In this document: one piece after another, positions 1 to 7,224 of the stretch
Numbering within the stretch: position 1 is the stretch's first letter
How the letters are laid out: every line of letters begins with the position of its first letter
From: a virus
Taxonomy: Duplodnaviria > Heunggongvirae > Uroviricota > Caudoviricetes
Virus record (IMG/VR): IMGVR_UViG_3300000059_000071
Location: 1-7,224 of that record
Reading direction: 5' to 3' (one strand)
Length of the DNA stretch: 7,224 nt
Notes under the pieces: model-generated
Database searches by the model: none
What the model saw: only the letters and a program-made list of their open reading frames with translations
What the model was told of the DNA's origin: nothing
Translations under genes and position numbers: made by a program

Positions 1-385
1 TCACGGGCGTTTAATTGCCCCGCCGAACAGCTCTTTTCCGCAATAGCTGCAATGTCTTTCGCGCATCAGCCTGCGCATTCACCACAACGCTGAGAGCACT
101 TAGCCAGTTACGGCACCACACTTTGTCGCGGTTCCATAAATGCCCTCATCGTTGCACCCTGGTCTCTTCCCAGGTGTCAAACCGAACCGCCACGCTGGTT
201 AGGCGTCTTATCAGCATCATCATTGACTTGCACATTCCGGCTACCTGGTTTGTTTGCCCGAGCAAGGAGTGGATTGTCCCCTTTAACGTCCCCAGACCGC
301 TAACGACGCATGTGCCATACACCGTGTTACAACCAAATTTTGTTAGTACCTTGTTTGTTGGTCTGGAAAGAAAGATAAAATGAAA

Positions 386-423
386 TTGCGCATTGTGCAA
401 GTGATTTGTTGTGATATATGCAA
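386..423. promoter_or_regulatory. Putative left operator pair (OL-like), probably overlapping a leftward early promoter
   Basis: Two 15-bp imperfect palindromes, TTGCGCATTGTGCAA (386-400) and TTGTGATATATGCAA (409-423), 23 bp apart start to start. Same pattern (TTGCGC-N3-NNGCAA) as the site at 1192-1206 next to the repressor gene. Position downstream of the repressor gene matches lambdoid OL/PL layout. No clean -35/-10 could be assigned. Confidence 0.4.
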
Positions 424-440
424 TTTAATGGGTAATGAAA

Positions 441-458
441 AGCCACCTTCGGGTGGCT
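441..458 (-). terminator. Rho-independent terminator candidate downstream of the repressor gene
   Basis: Perfect 7-bp GC-rich stem AGCCACC / GGTGGCT with a TTCG loop (plus strand). On the minus-strand RNA the hairpin is followed by UUUCAUU. Lies about 20 nt past the repressor stop at 479-481. Confidence 0.5.
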
Positions 459-478
459 AATTGATGAGGAGGTAAGGG

Positions 479-1171
479 TTAATTGTGTCGCTTAAGGGTT
501 TGTGACTGGCTGATTAAGACCTTTCCAAAGACCATAAACCGGTGTTCATTTTCGCTGGTAATTCCCCATTCACGGTAAATCTGGTTATCAGAAATCACCA
601 GTAGTTTGTCAGGTATCATTTGCAGTCGTTTGACATAAATTTTATCATCAAAACCAAATACATAGATACCATCTCCATCAAACTGATTGATACTGACATC
701 AACGAAGATGAGATCTCCTGGCTCAATGGTTGGACACATACTGTCCCCACGAACGTTGATAACTTTAATGTGATTGGCTGGTCGTCCGCCAAACATCGAT
801 ACAGCATTATCAGTTCTGTATTCAATGGCATGAATCACATCAATGACATCACCGCCCTGGATAAGGCCATTTCCCGCACTGGCACTGACATCCAGCATTT
901 CAATACGGAATACATCCTTCACCTGCGCAACATCCTCACTAATACTGTTTTTACATACAGTATTACTTTTGAAGTCTGAGGTAAAGAGATCAGCAATATC
1001 AACACCTAAGCTCCTGGCAATATTACTCAGGGCTTGTTCAGTGAATTGTTTCTGCTTACCTGTTTCCAGGCGTGAGATATTCGCCGCATCCACTCCTATT
1101 GCTTCAGCGAGATCGGCGATTTTCATGTTCTTCGCCTGGCGAAGTTGTCTGACTCGATTTCCTATGTTCAT
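479..1171 (-). CDS. CI-type prophage repressor (N-terminal XRE-family HTH, C-terminal LexA-like S24 peptidase domain); predicted RecA-stimulated autocleavage
   Basis: 230-aa ORF. N-terminal HTH (KIADLAEAIGVDAANISRLETG). Ala-Gly candidate cleavage site at residues 99-100 (SASAGNG). Ser in GDSM (res 144) and Lys in YVKRL (res 181), spaced 37 residues as in LexA Ser119/Lys156. Divergent from the cro-like gene. No SD upstream of the ATG, consistent with a leaderless transcript. Confidence 0.9.
   Translation of the reverse strand: MNIGNRVRQLRQAKNMKIADLAEAIGVDAANISRLETGKQKQFTEQALSNIARSLGVDIADLFTSDFKSNTVCKNSISEDVAQVKDVFRIEMLDVSASAGNGLIQGGDVIDVIHAIEYRTDNAVSMFGGRPANHIKVINVRGDSMCPTIEPGDLIFVDVSINQFDGDGIYVFGFDDKIYVKRLQMIPDKLLVISDNQIYREWGITSENEHRFMVFGKVLISQSQTLKRHN
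943..962. promoter_or_regulatory. LexA-box (SOS box)-like palindrome TACTGTTTTTACATACAGTA inside the repressor coding sequence
   Basis: Matches CTGT-N8-ACAG with both TACTGT/ACAGTA arms perfect; only the AT-rich centre differs from the consensus TACTGTATATATATACAGTA. A scan of the other CTGT occurrences found no second match in the window. Confidence 0.55.
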
Positions 1172-1268
1172 GCGTTTATTACATTTCTTTATTGCGCGTT
1201 AAGCAAATCAACTTGCGCAAAATATTTGCGTGAAATAATATGCTCATCACGCAATATGTGGAGGTTAT
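1172..1268. promoter_or_regulatory. Divergent immunity control region (OR-like operators with PRM-like leftward and PR-like rightward promoters)
   Basis: Operator-like site TTGCGCGTTAAGCAA (1192-1206) and a second TTGCGC-containing site, TTGCGCAAAATATTTGCG (1213-1230). Candidate PR: -35 TTGCGC (1213-1218), 17-bp spacer, -10 TAATAT (1236-1241), then SD GGAGG and cro ATG at 1269. Candidate PRM on minus strand: -35 TTGCTT (plus 1201-1206), 17-bp spacer, -10 TGTAAT (plus 1178-1183), putting the start at or near the repressor ATG. Confidence 0.6.
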
Positions 1269-1529
1269 ATGCAATCACCATTACGGAATGTGCGTAAAGC
1301 GCACGGATTTACTTTGCAGCATGTTGCTGCTGGCGTTCAGGTCAATCCAGCGACGCTGAGTCGTATTGAAAGACTGGAACAAATTCCATCTATCGATCTT
1401 GCAGAACGCCTGGCCAATTTTTTTAAGGGTGAAATCAGCGAAATGCAGATTCTTTATCCGGCACGTTTTCAATCTAGCCAAAACCAGAATGGGTTTAAAC
1501 CACAGGAACAGGAGGTAAGCCGTGGGTAA
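1269..1529 (+). CDS. Cro-like small HTH regulator (XRE family)
   Basis: 86-aa ORF divergent from the repressor. SD GGAGG 4 nt upstream of ATG. HTH segment FTLQHVAAGVQVNPATLSRIERLE. Position and size fit a Cro/YdaS-type protein. Confidence 0.8.
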   Translation: MQSPLRNVRKAHGFTLQHVAAGVQVNPATLSRIERLEQIPSIDLAERLANFFKGEISEMQILYPARFQSSQNQNGFKPQEQEVSRG

Positions 1530-1566
1530 GCATCACTGGAAAGTGGAAAAACAGCCTGAGTGGTAG

Positions 1567-2079
1567 GTGAAAGCTGTCAGAAAAACTATCGCGGCATTGC
1601 CTGGGGGTTACGCTGAAGCTGCTGACTGGCTGGATGTAACAGAGAACGCTTTATTCAACCGCCTTCGTGCAGATGGCGATCAGATTTTCCCGCTGGGATG
1701 GGCAATGATTTTACAACGTGCTGGTGGAACTCACTTCATTGCTGACGCTGTGGCGCAGTCTGCAAATGGCGTCTTTGTGTCTCTTCCTGACGTCGAGGAT
1801 GTGGACAACGCCGATATTAACCAGCGTCTGCTGGAAGTCATTGAACAGATCGGCAGTTATTCAAAACAGATTCGTTCAGCAATCGAAGACGGTGTAGTGG
1901 AACCGCATGAGAAGACAGCAATTAACGACGAGCTGTATCTCTCAATTTCGAAGCTGCAGGAGCATGCAGCACTTGTCTACAAAATTTTTTGCATTTCAGA
2001 AAGTAATGACGCCCGCGAGTGTGCAGCTCCGGGCGTCGTGGCGTCGATTGCTTCTGGTTGTGGAGAAACTAACGCATGA
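1567..2079 (+). CDS. CII-like / YdaT-like early regulator (functional CII analogue family); start codon uncertain
   Basis: 170-aa ORF immediately after the cro-like gene. Assignment is from position and recalled family resemblance, not a search. Annotated start is GTG 1567 with weak SD; a strong SD plus GTG lies in frame at 1511-1524 but is separated by TAG at 1564-1566. Stop overlaps the next ATG (ATGA at 2076-2079). Confidence 0.55.
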
Positions 2080-2414
2080 ACAGTTTAACAACACACTACC
2101 GTCGCTCGCAACTGATTGCGCTTCCTGTACCGGGTGGAAAAGCGAAGGTGGAGTATTGCTATGCAGTAAATGTACCAGGTGACAGGGAAATTGTAACCCA
2201 CAGCTTTGCAGAGTGGGCTGTGGGTGATTTCAACCGGCAGAAGGAGACAGTCCTTTGCGACAAGTTAACCGCTGGTTCAAAGATCACTACGGAGTGCCCG
2301 TCAGAGTCATTCGTTGGGAGCCGGAAACACAACGTGTTATCTACCTCCGCGAAGGCTATGAGCATGAGTGCTTCAGCCCGCTCGAACAGTTTCGTCGTAA
2401 ATTCAGGGAAATAG
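2076..2414 (+). CDS. Hypothetical early protein; likely carries a frameshift (sequence error or pseudogene) in its 3' half
   Basis: 112-aa ORF with SD GGAGAA 8 nt upstream, translationally coupled to the CII-like gene. The C-terminal ~50 residues in this frame are low-complexity ([16 protein letters not shown]), whereas the -1 frame from about 2228 to the TAA at 2432-2434 encodes a protein-like sequence ([55 protein letters not shown]). Confidence 0.4.
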
Positions 2415-2423
2415 AGGTCGGTC

Positions 2424-3365
2424 ATGAGCACTAAATTAACCGGCTATGTATGGGATGGTTGCGCTGCATCAGGCATGAAATTATCCAGCGTGGCAATTAT
2501 GGCCCGCCTGGCTGATTTCAGTAATGACGAAGGTGTGTGCTGGCCATCAATTGAAACCATTGCCCGCCAGATTGGCGCGGGAATGAGTACCGTCAGAACG
2601 GCTATCGCACGGCTGGAAGCAGAAGGCTGGTTAACGCGTAAGGCGCGTCGCCAGGGTAACCGCAATGCGTCGAATGTTTATCAGCTTAACGTTGCGAAGC
2701 TTCAGGCAGCGGCATTTTCTCAACTGTCAGATTCTGACCCGTCAAAATCTGACGCATCAAAATCTGACCCGTCAAAATTTGATGCGTCGAAATCTGGCAA
2801 AAAAGCGGGTTTTCACCCGTCAGAATCTGGCGGGGATCCGTCAGTAAAATCAAAACATGATCCGTCAGATAAAAAAACTTCTCGTCCGGACGCTTCGCAA
2901 CCGGACACGCAGACGGCTGAACAGGAGTTTTTAACTCGCCATCCTGATGCGGTTGTATTCAGCCCTAAAAAGCGCCAGTGGGGAACGCAGGATGATTTGA
3001 CCTGCGCACAGTGGCTCTGGAAAAAAATCATCGCCCTGTACGAGCAGGCCGCCGAATGTGACGGCGAGGTGGTTCGTCCCAAAGAACCGAACTGGACAGC
3101 CTGGGCAAACGAAATTCGCCTGATGTGTGTGCAGGATGGTCGTACTCANAAACAAATCTGCGAGATGTACAGCCGCGTCAGNCGCGATCCGTTCTGGTGC
3201 CGTAACGTGCTCAGCCCGTCGAAGCTGCGGGAAAAATGGGATGAGCTTTCCCTGCGCTTATCGCCGTCCGTAAGCACGTACACCGAAAAACGCGAAGACC
3301 CGTACTTCAAATCCAGTTACGACAACGTGGACTACAGCCAGATCCCGGCAGGATTCAGGGGGTGA
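2424..3365 (+). CDS. Lambda O-like replication initiator (N-terminal winged-helix DNA-binding domain, repeat linker encoded by the iterons, C-terminal domain)
   Basis: 313-aa ORF in the O position after the CII-like gene. N-terminal HTH/winged-helix-like segment (SIETIARQIGAGMSTVRTAIARLEAEGWL). Internal 5-aa repeats (DPSKS/DASKS) coincide with DNA iterons as in lambda O. SD AGAGGT upstream. Contains two N bases (3149, 3182). Confidence 0.8.
   Translation: MSTKLTGYVWDGCAASGMKLSSVAIMARLADFSNDEGVCWPSIETIARQIGAGMSTVRTAIARLEAEGWLTRKARRQGNRNASNVYQLNVAKLQAAAFSQLSDSDPSKSDASKSDPSKFDASKSGKKAGFHPSESGGDPSVKSKHDPSDKKTSRPDASQPDTQTAEQEFLTRHPDAVVFSPKKRQWGTQDDLTCAQWLWKKIIALYEQAAECDGEVVRPKEPNWTAWANEIRLMCVQDGRTXKQICEMYSRVXRDPFWCRNVLSPSKLREKWDELSLRLSPSVSTYTEKREDPYFKSSYDNVDYSQIPAGFRG
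2724..2877. repeat. Iteron array plus A-rich tract: candidate phage replication origin embedded in the initiator gene
   Basis: Five tandem 15-bp units each containing a GTCA-N5-TGAC-type palindrome (GTCAGATTCTGAC 2726-2738, GTCAAAATCTGAC 2741-2753, ATCAAAATCTGAC 2756-2768, GTCAAAATTTGAT 2771-2783, GTCGAAATCTGGC 2786-2798). A sixth copy at 2819-2831, two degenerate CCGTCAG copies (2838-2845, 2861-2868) each preceded by GATC, then an A-rich run (2868-2877). Confidence 0.65.
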
Positions 3366-3367
3366 TC

Positions 3368-3856
3368 ATGAGTCTGTTAAATGACGTTCAGAAATTCATT
3401 GAAGCCCATCCGGGGTGTACTTCCGGAGACATTGCGGATGCTTTTGCAGGTTACTCACGGCAGCGCGTTCTGCAGTCAGCAAGCAAGTTACGTCAGAGTG
3501 GGCGTGTGGCTCACCGTTGTGAAGGAGATACACGCAGACATTTCCCGCGCCTGACTGAGAGAGCGCAGGAACCGGAACCACAACCAGTTCGTGAAACCAG
3601 ACCTGTGCGCAATTTCTATGTCGGCACTAACGATCCCCGTGTGATTTTGTGCCTGACCCGCCAGGCGGAAGAACTGGAGTCCAGAGGCTTATACCGTCGT
3701 GCTGCAACCGTGTGGATGGCGGCATTCCGTGAAAGCCACTCCCAGCCAGAACGAAACAATTTTCTGGCGCGTCGTGAGCGGTGCTTACGGAAAAGCAGCA
3801 AGCGCGCTGCATCGGGTGAAGAGTGGTATCTGTCAGGGAATTACGTGGGGGCTTAA
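3368..3856 (+). CDS. PerC/Pch-family-like transcriptional regulator with an N-terminal extension
   Basis: ORF with SD GGGGG upstream of ATG 3368 (the GTG at 3362 overlaps the O-like stop and is less likely). C-terminal segment AEELESRGLYRRAATVWMAAF...ERNNFLARRERC resembles the conserved core of PerC-like regulators as recalled. Stop overlaps the next start (TAATG at 3854-3858). Confidence 0.55.
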   Translation: MSLLNDVQKFIEAHPGCTSGDIADAFAGYSRQRVLQSASKLRQSGRVAHRCEGDTRRHFPRLTERAQEPEPQPVRETRPVRNFYVGTNDPRVILCLTRQAEELESRGLYRRAATVWMAAFRESHSQPERNNFLARRERCLRKSSKRAASGEEWYLSGNYVGA

Positions 3857-4509
3857 TGAGTAATAAATATTGCCAGGCGCTGGTGGAACTGCGGAACAAA
3901 CCAGCCCATGAACTGAAGGAAGTGGGCGATCAGTGGCGCACGCCGGACAACATTTTCTGGGGAATTAACACCCTGTTTGGCCCGTTTGTTCTGGATCTGT
4001 TCACTGACGGTGATAACGCCAAATGTGCCGCGTATTACACGGCGGAAGACAACGCGCTGGCGCATGACTGGTCAGAACGCCTTGCGGAGCTTAAAGGTGC
4101 TGCCTTTGGTAATCCCCCATACAGCCGTGCCAGTCAGCATGAGGGGCAATACATCACCGGCATGCGTTACATCATGAAGCATGCCAGTGCCATGCGTGAT
4201 AAGGGCGGGCGCTATGTTTTCCTGATCAAAGCTGCCACCAGCGAAGTGTGGTGGCCGGAAGATGCAGATCATATTGCTTTTATTCGCGGGCGTATTGGTT
4301 TTGAACTGCCTGCCTGGTTTATCCCGAAGGATGAGAAGCAGGTGCCGACAGGCGCTTTCTTCGCTGGTGCTATTGCTGTTTTCGACAAGACCTGGAAGGG
4401 ACCGGCAATCAGCTACATCGGGCGCGATGAACTTGAGGCATGTGGTGAGGCGTTTCTGGCGCAGGTTCGCCAGCAGGCGGAAAAACTGGTCAGGGAGATG
4501 GCGGCATGA
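3856..4509 (+). CDS. Phage Dam-family N6-adenine DNA methyltransferase (orphan, no cognate restriction gene nearby)
   Basis: 217-aa ORF from ATG 3856 (SD GGGGG 4 nt upstream). Catalytic motif IV FGNPPYS. Size and context typical of lambdoid nin-region adenine methylases. Coupled to neighbours at both ends. Confidence 0.8.
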   Translation: MSNKYCQALVELRNKPAHELKEVGDQWRTPDNIFWGINTLFGPFVLDLFTDGDNAKCAAYYTAEDNALAHDWSERLAELKGAAFGNPPYSRASQHEGQYITGMRYIMKHASAMRDKGGRYVFLIKAATSEVWWPEDADHIAFIRGRIGFELPAWFIPKDEKQVPTGAFFAGAIAVFDKTWKGPAISYIGRDELEACGEAFLAQVRQQAEKLVREMAA

Positions 4510-4832
4510 CGACGTTAACTCAATGCCAGCAGCAGGTGCTGGATATGCTGATTTCTTATCAGAAAGAACGTGGCTTCCCGCCAACCAATCAGGAGGTGGC
4601 AACCATGCTGGGATACCGTTCAGTGAATGCAGCGGTGGAGCATCTTCGCGCACTGGAGAAAAAAGGCGTCATCACGATAAAGCGTGGCGTGGCCCGGGGG
4701 ATAACGCTTCATACCGCGGTGAAGGACGACGACAGCGAGGCGGTCGGGATTATCCGCGCACTGCTTACCGGTGAGGAAAACGCAAGGCTGCGTGCAACCC
4801 ACTGGTTACATGAGAGGGGCCTGAAAGTATGA
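4506..4832 (+). CDS. LexA N-terminal DNA-binding-domain homologue lacking the cleavage site and S24 peptidase domain
   Basis: 108-aa ORF. Residues 1-70 align with E. coli LexA residues 1-70 at roughly 50% identity as recalled (ours QQQVLDML...GFPPTNQEVATMLGYRSVNAAVEHLRALEKKGVITI vs LexA RQQEVFDLI...[36 protein letters not shown]). Recognition helix NAAxEHL conserved. No Ala-Gly site or Ser/Lys dyad; a ~35-aa unrelated tail follows. ATGA overlaps at both ends. Confidence 0.8.
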   Translation: MTTLTQCQQQVLDMLISYQKERGFPPTNQEVATMLGYRSVNAAVEHLRALEKKGVITIKRGVARGITLHTAVKDDDSEAVGIIRALLTGEENARLRATHWLHERGLKV

Positions 4833-5218
4833 AGCTGATCCTGCCTTTTCCGCCCAGCGTGAACACGTACTGGCGACACCCCAACAAAGGGGCGTTTGCT
4901 GGTAAGAGCCTGATAAGCGCGGCGGGGCGAAAATTCCAGAGCGCGGCGTGCGCAGCAATAGTTGAGCAGTTACGTCGTCTGCCGAAACCAACGTCGGCAC
5001 CTGCTTCAGTGGAGATCGTGTTGTTTCCTCCGGATAACCGGATCCGCGATCTGGACAACTATAACAAGGCGCTGTTTGACGCCCTGACCCACGCGGGTGT
5101 GTGGGAAGACGACAGCCAGGTGAAAAGAATGCTGGTGGAGTGGGGACCGGTTATCCCGGAAGGGAAGGTCGAGATCACTATCAGTAAGTACGAGAAAACG
5201 GCGGGTGCAGCCGCCTGA
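4829..5218 (+). CDS. rusA: RusA Holliday-junction resolvase
   Basis: 129-aa ORF. Motifs LPFPPSVNTYWRH and RDLDNYNKALFDALTHAGVWEDDSQV match E. coli RusA (LPWPPSNNRYYRH ... [26 protein letters not shown]), including the catalytic Asp cluster. SD GAGAGGGG upstream. Confidence 0.9.
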   Translation: MKLILPFPPSVNTYWRHPNKGAFAGKSLISAAGRKFQSAACAAIVEQLRRLPKPTSAPASVEIVLFPPDNRIRDLDNYNKALFDALTHAGVWEDDSQVKRMLVEWGPVIPEGKVEITISKYEKTAGAAA

Positions 5219-5237
5219 GCAAGAGGAGAAACGAAGT

Positions 5238-6035
5238 ATGAATAATCTGATGGTCATTGATGGTATTGAAGTTCGTCGTGATGCTTATGGGCGTTACAGC
5301 CTGAACGATCTGCACAGGGCTGCCGGTTCTCTGGATAAGCATAAGCCTGCATTCTGGCTCCGCAATGAGCAAACTGAACGTTTAATAAGCGAGTTGCAGA
5401 TTTGCAACTCGGTCAATATAGAGCCAGTTAACGTTATTCGTGGCGGAAATAACCAGGGGACGTATGTCTGCAAAGAACTGGTGTATGCCTATGCAATGTG
5501 GATCAGTCCGTCATTCCATCTGAAGGTGATCCGTACTTTCGATATGGTAACCAGCGCACCGGAAAAATTATCCGGGCAGGCTGCTGACAAGATGCAGGCT
5601 GGAGTGATTCTGCTGGACTTTATGCGCCGGGAGTTAAACCTGTCTAACTCTTCAGTGCTTGGTGCCTGTCAGAAACTCCAGGAGGCTGTTGGCTTACCGA
5701 ATCTGGCACCGCGCTATGCCATTGATGCTCCTGCTGACGCGCCTGATGGCTCAAGCCGCCCCACGCTGTCACTGAGTGCACTGCTGAAGCAGTATGGTAT
5801 CCGCCTGACAGCTAATCAGGCATATCACCAGATGGTGAAGCTGGGGATCGTCGAGCAGCGCGAACGATACAGCCGTACCGCGATTAACAACATCAAAAAA
5901 TTCTGGTCGCTGACAGCGAAAGGCTGCATGTTCGGCAAGAACATCACCAGTCCCGCAAATCCGCGCGAGACGCAGCCGCATTTCTTCGAATCCCGATTCC
6001 CTGAGCTGTTAAAGCTGCTCGATACCGTTCATTGA
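5238..6035 (+). CDS. KilA-N domain protein (Roi/antirepressor-like) with an uncharacterised C-terminal domain
   Basis: 265-aa ORF from ATG 5238 with SD GAGGAG 8 nt upstream. N-terminal ~100 aa (MVIDGIEVRRDAYGRYSLNDLHRAAG...KPAFWLRNEQTERLISEL) has the character of KilA-N/Roi DNA-binding domains. The C-terminal ~160 aa was not recognised. Confidence 0.75.
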   Translation: MNNLMVIDGIEVRRDAYGRYSLNDLHRAAGSLDKHKPAFWLRNEQTERLISELQICNSVNIEPVNVIRGGNNQGTYVCKELVYAYAMWISPSFHLKVIRTFDMVTSAPEKLSGQAADKMQAGVILLDFMRRELNLSNSSVLGACQKLQEAVGLPNLAPRYAIDAPADAPDGSSRPTLSLSALLKQYGIRLTANQAYHQMVKLGIVEQRERYSRTAINNIKKFWSLTAKGCMFGKNITSPANPRETQPHFFESRFPELLKLLDTVH

Positions 6036-6036
6036 G

Positions 6037-7032
6037 GTGACCGTGAGAGCACTACTGACCCCTGAAATTGCCCCGCGTATGGGGATCGTATTGTTCAGAC
6101 CAGGTTCAGAGCTGATGCCCCTGTTTATGCAGGGGCGTGTCCTGCTGGAGCCTGAGCCGGAACGTTATTCATCTTTCGCCAGCGGTGCCGTTCCGGCGGC
6201 ATCACAACCGCTGGCGGATGATCCTGCCGTTCGGGCCGTGTTCCGCAATGAGGCAGTGATCCGTCGTGCTGGTGGCGTGGAATGTCTTGAAAGCTGGTTA
6301 CTTCGTGAAAAAGGCTGCCAGTGGCCTCATTCCGACTGGCACAGCGAGAACATGACCACAATGCGACACGCTCCGGGCGCAATCCGTCTGTGCTGGCACT
6401 GCGATAACCAGCTGCGCGATCAGTTCACGGAACGGCTGGAATCAATGGCAACGGATAACTGTGCCCGCTGGGTGTTGTCTGTTGTGCGTCGGGATCTCGG
6501 TTTTGATGACAGTCACGTTGTGACAATGCCGGAACTGTGCTGGTGGCTGGTTCGTAATGACCTGGCGGATGCCTTACCGGAAAGTGCAGCCCGTAAGGCA
6601 CTGAGATTACCGAAGCCTGTTGTGCCGTCTGTCACCCGGGAAAGTGACCTTGTGCCTTCGGTTCCTGCCACCAGCATCATCCAGGATAAAGCGAAAAAGG
6701 TGCTGGCGCTGAAAGTGGATCCGGAGTCGCCGGAGTCTTTTATGTTACGCCCAAAACGTCGCCGCTGGGTTAATGAAAAGTACACGCGCTGGGTTAAGAC
6801 GCAGCCGTGTGCATGTTGTGGAAAGCCTGCTGATGATCCCCACCANCTGATAGGCCACGGTCAGGGNGGAATGGGTACAAAAGCGCATGANCTCTTTGTG
6901 TTGCCTTTGTGCAGAAAGCATCACGACGAGCTGCATGCGGATACCNTGGCATTTGAAGAGAAGTATGGCTCCCAGCTGGAGNTGATATTTCGTTTTATCG
7001 ATCGTGCGCTGGCAATNGGCGTGCTGGCCTGA
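6037..7032 (+). CDS. DUF968-like prophage protein with C-terminal Cys/His (HNH-like) motif; start codon uncertain (GTG 6037, GTG 6043 or ATG 6079)
   Basis: 331-aa ORF directly upstream of Q, the position of DUF968 proteins in lambdoid prophages as recalled. Cys/His motifs CWHCDNQ and CACCGKP...CRKHHDELH. Six N bases inside the ORF (6846, 6868, 6891, 6946, 6972, 7018). Confidence 0.65.
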
Positions 7033-7048
7033 TTTTGTGGAGAAAGTT

Positions 7049-7224
7049 GATGCGTGATATTCAAATGGTTCTTGAACGTTGGGGGGCATGGGTGGCAAAT
7101 AATCACGAGGATGTGGAATGGTCATCTGTTGCTGCAGGTTTTAAGGGATTAATTCCTTCGAAAGTAAAATCCCGCCCGCAATGTAGCGATGACGATGGCC
7201 TGATCATTAGCTCTGCGATGACAG
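7049..7224 (+). CDS. Late antiterminator Q, N-terminal fragment (gene runs off the window end)
   Basis: ATG 7049 with SD GGAG 6 nt upstream. Translation [53 protein letters not shown] matches the recalled N-terminus of Q-family antiterminators. Follows the nin-like genes as expected. Confidence 0.75.

Follow-up and report, generated by a model that had tools for sequence, protein, structure and literature searches.

A 7,224-nucleotide (nt) stretch of DNA from a Caudoviricetes virus (positions 1 to 7,224 of IMG/VR record IMGVR_UViG_3300000059_000071; this whole stretch is referred to as the window) carries, just before its Q antiterminator gene, a gene for what is by sequence comparison an ordinary lambdoid-prophage protein of the YdfU/DUF968 family. 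We regard this family assignment and the HNH fold of the C-terminal domain as close to certain. The C-terminal ~85 residues would form a zinc-stabilised HNH finger of the type present in Ref, Gp16 and YbcO, with a single live active site, and metal-dependent catalytic activity is likely, judged by homology. On balance, we favor an explanation in which the protein is an HNH nickase that accompanies the RusA resolvase and has intermediates of recombination or replication as its target. Genes of this kind are already known and very common in prophages, and this copy adds nothing new; the modest additions of the analysis are a second zinc site in the N-terminal domain, where a dead HNH copy may be present, a link to work on Gp16 from 2026, and a pattern of three alternative recombination cassettes.

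The YdfU-family protein and its C-terminal HNH domain

The open reading frame on the + strand spans 6037-7032, or 331 codons counted from GTG 6037, and the two Cys/His clusters that a preliminary description had placed within it are present where described, on direct reading. Translation most likely begins at GTG 6043 rather than at 6037, because database homologues are 329 amino acids (aa) long with an N-terminus, MRALL, that corresponds to GTG 6043, matches to the PHROG profile open at residue 3 of the 6037 reading, and a GAGG stands at suitable spacing.

6043..7032, + strand: YdfU/DUF968-family coding sequence, 329 aa and a stop codon; the mechanical open reading frame opens two codons upstream, at GTG 6037
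6034..6037, + strand: GAGG, read directly from the sequence and presumably a Shine-Dalgarno element, 5 nt before GTG 6043; it overlaps the TGA stop codon (6033-6035) of the KilA-N gene

The protein matches the Pfam family DUF968 (PF06147) over profile positions 2-171 of 171 with a score of 256.7 bits, where the cut-off is 27.8 (E = 1.4e-76), as its earlier naming as DUF968-like anticipated, and phrog_96, "HNH endonuclease", at E = 1e-172. Its similarity to YdfU of the E. coli K-12 Qin prophage extends over both domains (58% identity, residues 1-329 against 1-349, E = 5e-147); YdfU matches the same Pfam and PHROG models and is likewise encoded directly upstream of a Q gene, ydfT, whereas a 20-residue linker insertion in YdfU is the only difference of note. 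That the open reading frame did not arise by chance is evident from its 99% identity to a 9,520-member database cluster labelled "DUF968 domain-containing protein" and from its presence, by megablast, in 3,718 of 5,426 complete E. coli genomes. The family is very widespread: some two thirds of the complete E. coli genomes have it, and it occurs in Shigella serotype-converting, cdt and Stx2 phages; the 74 phage records in which megablast found the gene include cdtI, SfII, SfIV and many Stx2 phages, and several label it an HNH endonuclease. HMMER, run exhaustively on 1.8 billion representative proteins, returned 3,091 clusters at E ≤ 0.001, with full-length relatives reaching down to 27% identity. 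The protein had no match in NCBIfam and none in PADLOC, the latter giving no evidence of a role in a defence system. One 526-aa database gene call (P0001) contains most of the DUF968 protein duplicated internally, which is probably an artefact of assembly or recombination.

The elements of the C-terminal domain, with residues numbered from GTG 6043 and conservation counted in 57-61 relatives of identity down to 27%, are as follows.

6748..6768, + strand: conserved basic RPKRRRW motif, aa 236-242, directly before the HNH domain (P237 in 57 of 58 relatives, K238 in 58 of 58)
6772..7029, + strand: Ref/Gp16-like His-Me (HNH) finger domain, aa 244-329
6808..6819, + strand: first zinc knuckle, C256-A-C-C259 (C256 in 57 of 57, C259 in 48 of 57), equivalent to C145/C148 of Gp16
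6841..6846, + strand: H267-H268 pair; H268, the probable general base, aligns with H157 of Gp16 and H113 of Ref
6889..6891, + strand: invariant D283 of the KAHD motif (Asp in 56 of 56)
6910..6936, + strand: second zinc pair, C290-x-x-H293, followed by the putative metal-binding or catalytic residues H294 and H298 (CRKHHDELH)

Neither the single protein nor a 61-sequence profile had a significant match among PDB sequences, the only hit being YbcO at E = 0.24, so the link to HNH nucleases required structure prediction. An AlphaFold2 model built on 61 homologues has a mean predicted local distance difference test score (pLDDT) of 89.5, with values mostly of 94-97 over residues 244-329. The predicted fold of this region is the beta-beta-alpha metal finger of the His-Me finger nucleases, the catalytic His and the metal-binding residues of the helix are conserved, and the nearest structures are Ref and YbcO. 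At the sequence level, 39 of the 61 relatives match HNHc_6 and 9 match RecA_dep_nuc, the latter weakly.

The residues concerned fall within three motifs, CACCGKP (6808-6828), PHH (6838-6846) and CRKHHDELH (6910-6936). H267 and H268 are kept in 52 and 54 of 57 relatives, C290 in 49 of 57, H294 in 51 of 57 and H298 in 51 of 56, and position 293 is His in 29 relatives and Cys in 17, an interchange that is the signature of a zinc ligand. On this reading, C256, C259, C290 and H293 would hold one structural zinc, H268 would serve as the general base, and D283, H294 and H298 would lie round the catalytic metal. The RPKRRRW motif may act like the basic N-terminal DNA anchor of Ref. The preliminary description had proposed a zinc-binding, HNH-like C-terminal fold, and model and conservation both bear this out: of the two results it had named as contrary to the proposal, a predicted structure lacking an HNH fold and Cys/His residues that vary among homologues, neither was obtained. 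In the 1,892-sequence cluster P0005, PNHLIGYG stands for PHHLIGHG and H268 is kept; to go by this common allele, the first His of the pair and H272 are dispensable or variable.

Six bases of the gene, all in its 3ʹ third, are given as N (6846, 6867, 6891, 6946, 6982 and 7017). Relatives with identical 12-nt flanks carry C/T, T/G, C/T, G, C/T and T/A at these positions, encoding His, Gly, Asp, Val, Leu and Ile, in that order. Of these bases, which the preliminary description had located in the motif region, two occupy the third positions of the H268 codon (CAN, 6846) and the D283 codon (GAN, 6891); C and T are the bases found at each, so that 6846 yields His either way and 6891 yields Asp.

The N-terminal domain and related nucleases

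Residues 1 to ~220 have no Pfam match except to the start of the DUF968 model, which covers aa 160-326. The N-terminal 220 residues are predicted to be folded (pLDDT 87) and would constitute a family-specific domain, presumably for recognition of DNA or of a partner protein, with a zinc site of its own formed by C92, H100, C117 and C120. Positions 100 and 120 each alternate between His and Cys among relatives.

6277..6507, + strand: N-terminal zinc module, aa 79-155, consisting of helix, beta-hairpin and helix and containing CWHCDNQ (6391-6411)
6316-6318, 6340-6342, 6391-6393 and 6400-6402, + strand: ligand-type positions C92, H/C100, C117 and H/C120

C92 is present in 57 of 60 relatives and C117 in 59 of 60; position 100 is His in 32 and Cys in 26, and position 120 is His in 36 and Cys in 23. 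The CWHC pair had been grouped with the C-terminal nuclease cluster in the preliminary description. This does not hold, as C117 and the Cys/His-variable position 120 belong to the separate N-terminal site. The predicted secondary structure of the module (helix 79-86, hairpin 104-109/112-117, helix 118-124 and helix 130-151) parallels that of the C-terminal HNH domain in the AlphaFold2 model, and a profile-profile alignment of the two halves pairs WLLREKGCQ with WVKTQPCAC in the expected register, weakly (P = 0.007, probability 5.6%). No conservation is seen at the N-terminal counterpart of the catalytic His. These weak but consistent signs suggest, with moderate-to-low confidence, that residues ~79-155 are a second, degenerate and catalytically dead HNH-like zinc module. 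A further elaboration, which we consider rather unlikely, is that YdfU-type proteins are internal pseudo-dimers, with a dead half at aa ~79-155 and a live half at aa 244-329, that act as strand-specific nickases and form, with RusA, one of three interchangeable nin cassettes, the N-terminal domain replacing targeting by Orf or by the Orf-like domain of Gp16, possibly at DNA bound by RecA or SSB.

Gp16 of the Staphylococcus phage ΦNM1 (PF16784, HNHc_6) is the strongest sequence match (41% over 59 aa of the HNH motif, E = 2e-10). Its residues C145/C148, H157, C181/H184, H185 and H189 are spaced exactly as C256/C259, H268, C290/H293, H294 and H298, and C181, H184, H185 and H189 have been mutated experimentally (PMC12817073). 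Gp16 scores above the DUF968 threshold, P0004 (an N-free, 99%-identical stand-in for the protein of the window) scores marginally above that of HNHc_6, and RusA is encoded by both phages. Unlike the DUF968 protein, Gp16 has a NinB/Orf-like N-terminal domain, and a full-length HNHc_6 match that takes in this domain was not obtained; gp16 also belongs to a phage of a Gram-positive host and adjoins ssb early in the replication module rather than Q. Gp16 is a RecA-binding nickase that is stimulated by RecA; it blocks replication of the host, and the phage depends on it for a full yield (Nucleic Acids Research 2026, PMC12817073).

Ref of phage P1 (PDB 3PLW; PF16786, RecA_dep_nuc) has in common with the DUF968 protein the elements PC-x-x-C, HH and LPLCR-x-HH (40% over 42 aa), both are counted as zinc-stabilised, and phrog_1588 matches the two of them and Gp16. 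The N-terminus of Ref is a disordered, highly basic segment of 76 residues, whereas the DUF968 protein has a folded domain of 220 residues, and the genomic context of Ref in P1 differs. YdfU, at 17.8 bits, stays below the RecA_dep_nuc cut-off of 26.9. Ref, an HNH enzyme, requires RecA on the DNA that it cleaves, and it cuts the strands of a D-loop one by one. The third relative, YbcO of the E. coli prophage DLP12 (PDB 3G27; PF07102, formerly DUF1364), belongs to His-Me finger group 7, is 31% identical over 61 aa, and is encoded beside RusA and upstream of Q. It differs in being a bare HNH domain of 96 aa without an N-terminal domain and in having a single Cys where DUF968 has CxxC; the similarity is pairwise and structural only, as 0 of the 61 relatives match PF07102.

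Proposed function and its alternatives

A role for DUF968 proteins in recombination has been considered before. Their zinc-finger HNH motif and their fusions to Erf, Rad52, RusA and Orf were noted in 2014 (PMC4118853), and in 2017 DUF968 and DUF1364/YbcO were placed in His-Me finger group 7, with YdfU named, RusA, Q and an antirepressor listed as neighbors, and a recombination nuclease like NinG and Ref proposed (PMC5714182). PHROGs and RefSeq already label the protein an HNH endonuclease; a Genome Research paper of 2025 on lambdoid recombination modules does not discuss the gene. The statement in the preliminary description that the function is unknown is correct for direct experiments on YdfU-type proteins, but the HNH class and the hypothesis of a role in recombination were published in 2017, and two homologous modules, those of Ref and (in 2026) ΦNM1 Gp16, have been characterised biochemically.

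By analogy with these modules, one live active site would make nicking of DNA, rather than cutting of both strands, the most likely activity. The target would be recombination or replication intermediates formed during lytic growth, late in the early phase, and may be RecA-bound DNA, as for Ref and Gp16; such RecA-linked action is a tentative proposal that we hold to be somewhat improbable. The protein would work beside the RusA resolvase, which is nearly always encoded just upstream. In the window, the neighbors are as follows.

4829..5218, + strand: RusA Holliday-junction resolvase (Pfam RusA, E = 6e-15)
5205..6035, + strand: KilA-N domain protein, between RusA and DUF968 (Pfam KilA-N, E = 2e-26)
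7050..7224, + strand: Q antiterminator of the QuuD/82 type, starting at ATG 7050; its first 58 codons are present and it is cut by the window end (PF06530, E = 8.9e-29)

The DUF968 gene ends 17 nt before ATG 7050. It directly precedes Q and closes the delayed-early (nin) operon. Conservation of this order was examined in four sets of 80 loci each with a tblastn scan; three of the sets consist of near-identical relatives, so their counts are not independent events.

DUF968 loci, IMG/VR (98-99% identical): RusA 75, NinG 0, NinB 0, YbcN 0, YbcO 0, KilA-N 77
DUF968 loci, GTDB species representatives (48-99% identical): RusA 61, NinG 0, NinB 0, YbcN 0, YbcO 2, KilA-N 13, Q 58
Lambda-type NinG loci: RusA 0, NinB 77, YbcN 1, YbcO 0, DUF968 0, KilA-N 5; Q of lambda type 35, of QuuD type 39
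DLP12-type RusA loci: NinG 0, NinB 17, YbcN 56, YbcO 80, DUF968 0, KilA-N 0, Q 77

The GTDB set covers Escherichia, Citrobacter, Kosakonia, Klebsiella, Pantoea, Erwinia and other genera. In it, RusA lies upstream on the same strand at a median gap of 719 nt, and Q lies no more than 100 nt downstream in all 47 well-flanked loci with a detected Q (median gap 21 nt). The early-right context with RusA, an antirepressor and Q is found in the same order in relatives of 40-99% identity, the KilA-N slot being often held by an antirepressor in the more distant loci. YbcO is almost never found with DUF968 (2 of 80 GTDB and 0 of 80 IMG/VR loci), nor is DUF968 found in the 80 DLP12-type loci. The distribution suggests three alternative nin-region cassettes: Orf with Rap; an Orf-like protein with YbcO and RusA, as in phage 82 and DLP12; and RusA with YdfU. 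In the IMG/VR loci, the Q gene downstream is of the lambda/YdfT type in 39 and of the unrelated QuuD/82 type in 38-39, so that a mosaic recombination boundary falls directly after the DUF968 stop codon.

The preliminary description placed the gene in the NinG/Rap position and raised the possibility that it is a non-orthologous replacement of lambda NinG/Rap, which would make it an endonuclease for branched DNA or Holliday junctions in Rap's slot. The position is right as regards the adjacency to Q but is approximate, since ninH and ninI separate ninG from Q in lambda. NinG (PF05766), a branched-DNA endonuclease, was correctly described as HNH-type, being listed with DUF968 in the His-Me finger superfamily (PMC5714182), and in both cases the gene is found between Q and the genes for replication. 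They are also mutually exclusive across 240 sampled loci: none of the 160 DUF968 loci has NinG, and none of the 80 NinG loci has DUF968. This absence of NinG would fit a replacement, but sequence similarity is undetectable: BLASTP against lambda NinG gave a best E of 1.6, and 0 of the 61 relatives match the Pfam NinG model at E ≤ 0.1. Moreover, the closest structures, Ref and YbcO, include no junction resolvase, and a single HNH site, in a protein not known to dimerise, is ill-suited to the paired cleavage of a junction. Rap occurs with NinB and without RusA, whereas DUF968 occurs with RusA and without NinB; the junction-resolving role is thus already filled, here and in most DUF968 loci. Because rap and rusA are recognised alternative resolvase genes of the nin region (PMC4118853) and RusA travels with DUF968, the protein is more likely a partner of RusA than a replacement of Rap. 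Action alongside RusA, which had also been suggested, agrees with the presence of RusA in most of the loci, while a substitution for Rap we judge unlikely.

About equally unlikely is a host-takeover effector in the manner of ΦNM1 Gp16, which would act through RecA to stop replication of the host, whose chromosome it would damage or condense. The HNH modules of the two proteins are homologous and have equal motif spacing; host growth is inhibited when Gp16 is expressed, plating efficiency falls ~10-fold when it is deleted, and Ref is reported to increase killing of the P1 lysogen by ciprofloxacin (PMC4713147). However, expression of the DUF968 gene comes towards the end of the early operon, just ahead of Q, rather than immediately after infection, and it is kept in many cryptic prophages, such as Qin, without obvious toxicity. 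Its constant position directly ahead of a gene that activates late genes (Q in all 47 loci with a detected Q, Lpa in a P1-like element) would also fit a non-catalytic zinc-finger protein that binds DNA or regulates, for instance as a modulator of Q or of late genes, with the HNH residues serving structure. One family member is annotated as a transcriptional regulator, and some distant relatives retain the cysteines without the catalytic histidines. Yet H268, D283, H294 and H298 are each kept in about 90% or more of relatives, which structure alone does not explain, and we consider this reading very improbable. Least credible of all is a free-standing selfish homing HNH or a terminase-associated HNH for cos cleavage. 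Both kinds of gene are common in phages, but the DUF968 gene is not sporadic: RusA, one gene, DUF968 and Q follow one another in fixed order at 48-99% identity across many genera. It also lies far from terminase, and the phage of one relative has lambda-type Nu1/GpA several genes downstream. The homing-endonuclease and packaging-HNH readings were rejected on this synteny; the gene does not adjoin terminase at the genome end, as one of the HK97 gp74 type would, but stands upstream of Q and the lysis genes.

Several observations weigh against a catalytic RusA-accompanying nickase. A large sub-cluster has PNH in place of PHH, and three full-length relatives of 27-31% identity (P0188, P0191 and P0254) lack the HH pair, H294 and H298, so at least some family members may act without catalysis. 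The mutation H157A of Gp16, equivalent to H268, did not abolish toxicity (PMC12817073). The DUF968 protein does not match the RecA_dep_nuc Pfam model at E ≤ 0.01, and because both the disordered basic N-terminus of Ref and the NinB-like N-terminal domain of Gp16 are absent from it, RecA dependence is not confidently transferable. The synteny samples are mostly related prophages, and the linkage to RusA may partly reflect shared descent. Lastly, the literature search found no experimental study of a YdfU-type protein.

Should the protein prove active as a nickase linked to RecA, in the manner of Ref or Gp16, prophage induction and phage-antibiotic synergy could be affected. It could also influence recombination among the many co-resident lambdoid prophages, a driver of Stx-phage mosaicism.

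The remainder of the window and minor observations

The order of its Pfam matches identifies the window as the part of a lambdoid prophage that extends from immunity to Q. It opens with an S24 cI-like repressor gene (479-1171, - strand), a cro-like gene, CII (CP76) and a replication initiator with an HTH_36 domain (2424-3365), and continues through genes for a PerC-like protein, a Dam methylase and a protein with a LexA DNA-binding domain only, before reaching RusA. The last of these proteins (4506-4832, 108 aa) matches PF01726 at E = 3e-19 and lacks an S24 peptidase domain. The gene runs into the beginning of RusA and is found in 71 of 80 close DUF968 loci.

Within the initiator-like reading frame, a 15-nt unit, TCTGACCCGTCAAAA, is repeated 4.3 times at 2733-2796 and encodes the peptide repeat DPSKSDASKSDPSKF. 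The repeat looks like a set of origin iterons inside the initiator gene, as in lambda O. Two more N bases, at 3149 and 3182, give X residues in the translation of this frame.

A terminator-like hairpin with a T-run occupies 7008-7028, where the DUF968 gene ends, ~20 nt short of the start codon of Q. It is a consensus match only, and 6 such sites occur in the region against 2.1 expected. Among the distant relatives mentioned above, P0188, P0191 and P0254 retain the cysteines, with CxxC where CxxH stands in the protein of the window, and are probably catalytically dead; in a P1/P7-like element, the gene for P0188 (locus L007, 5001-6044) directly precedes that for the late-promoter activator Lpa.

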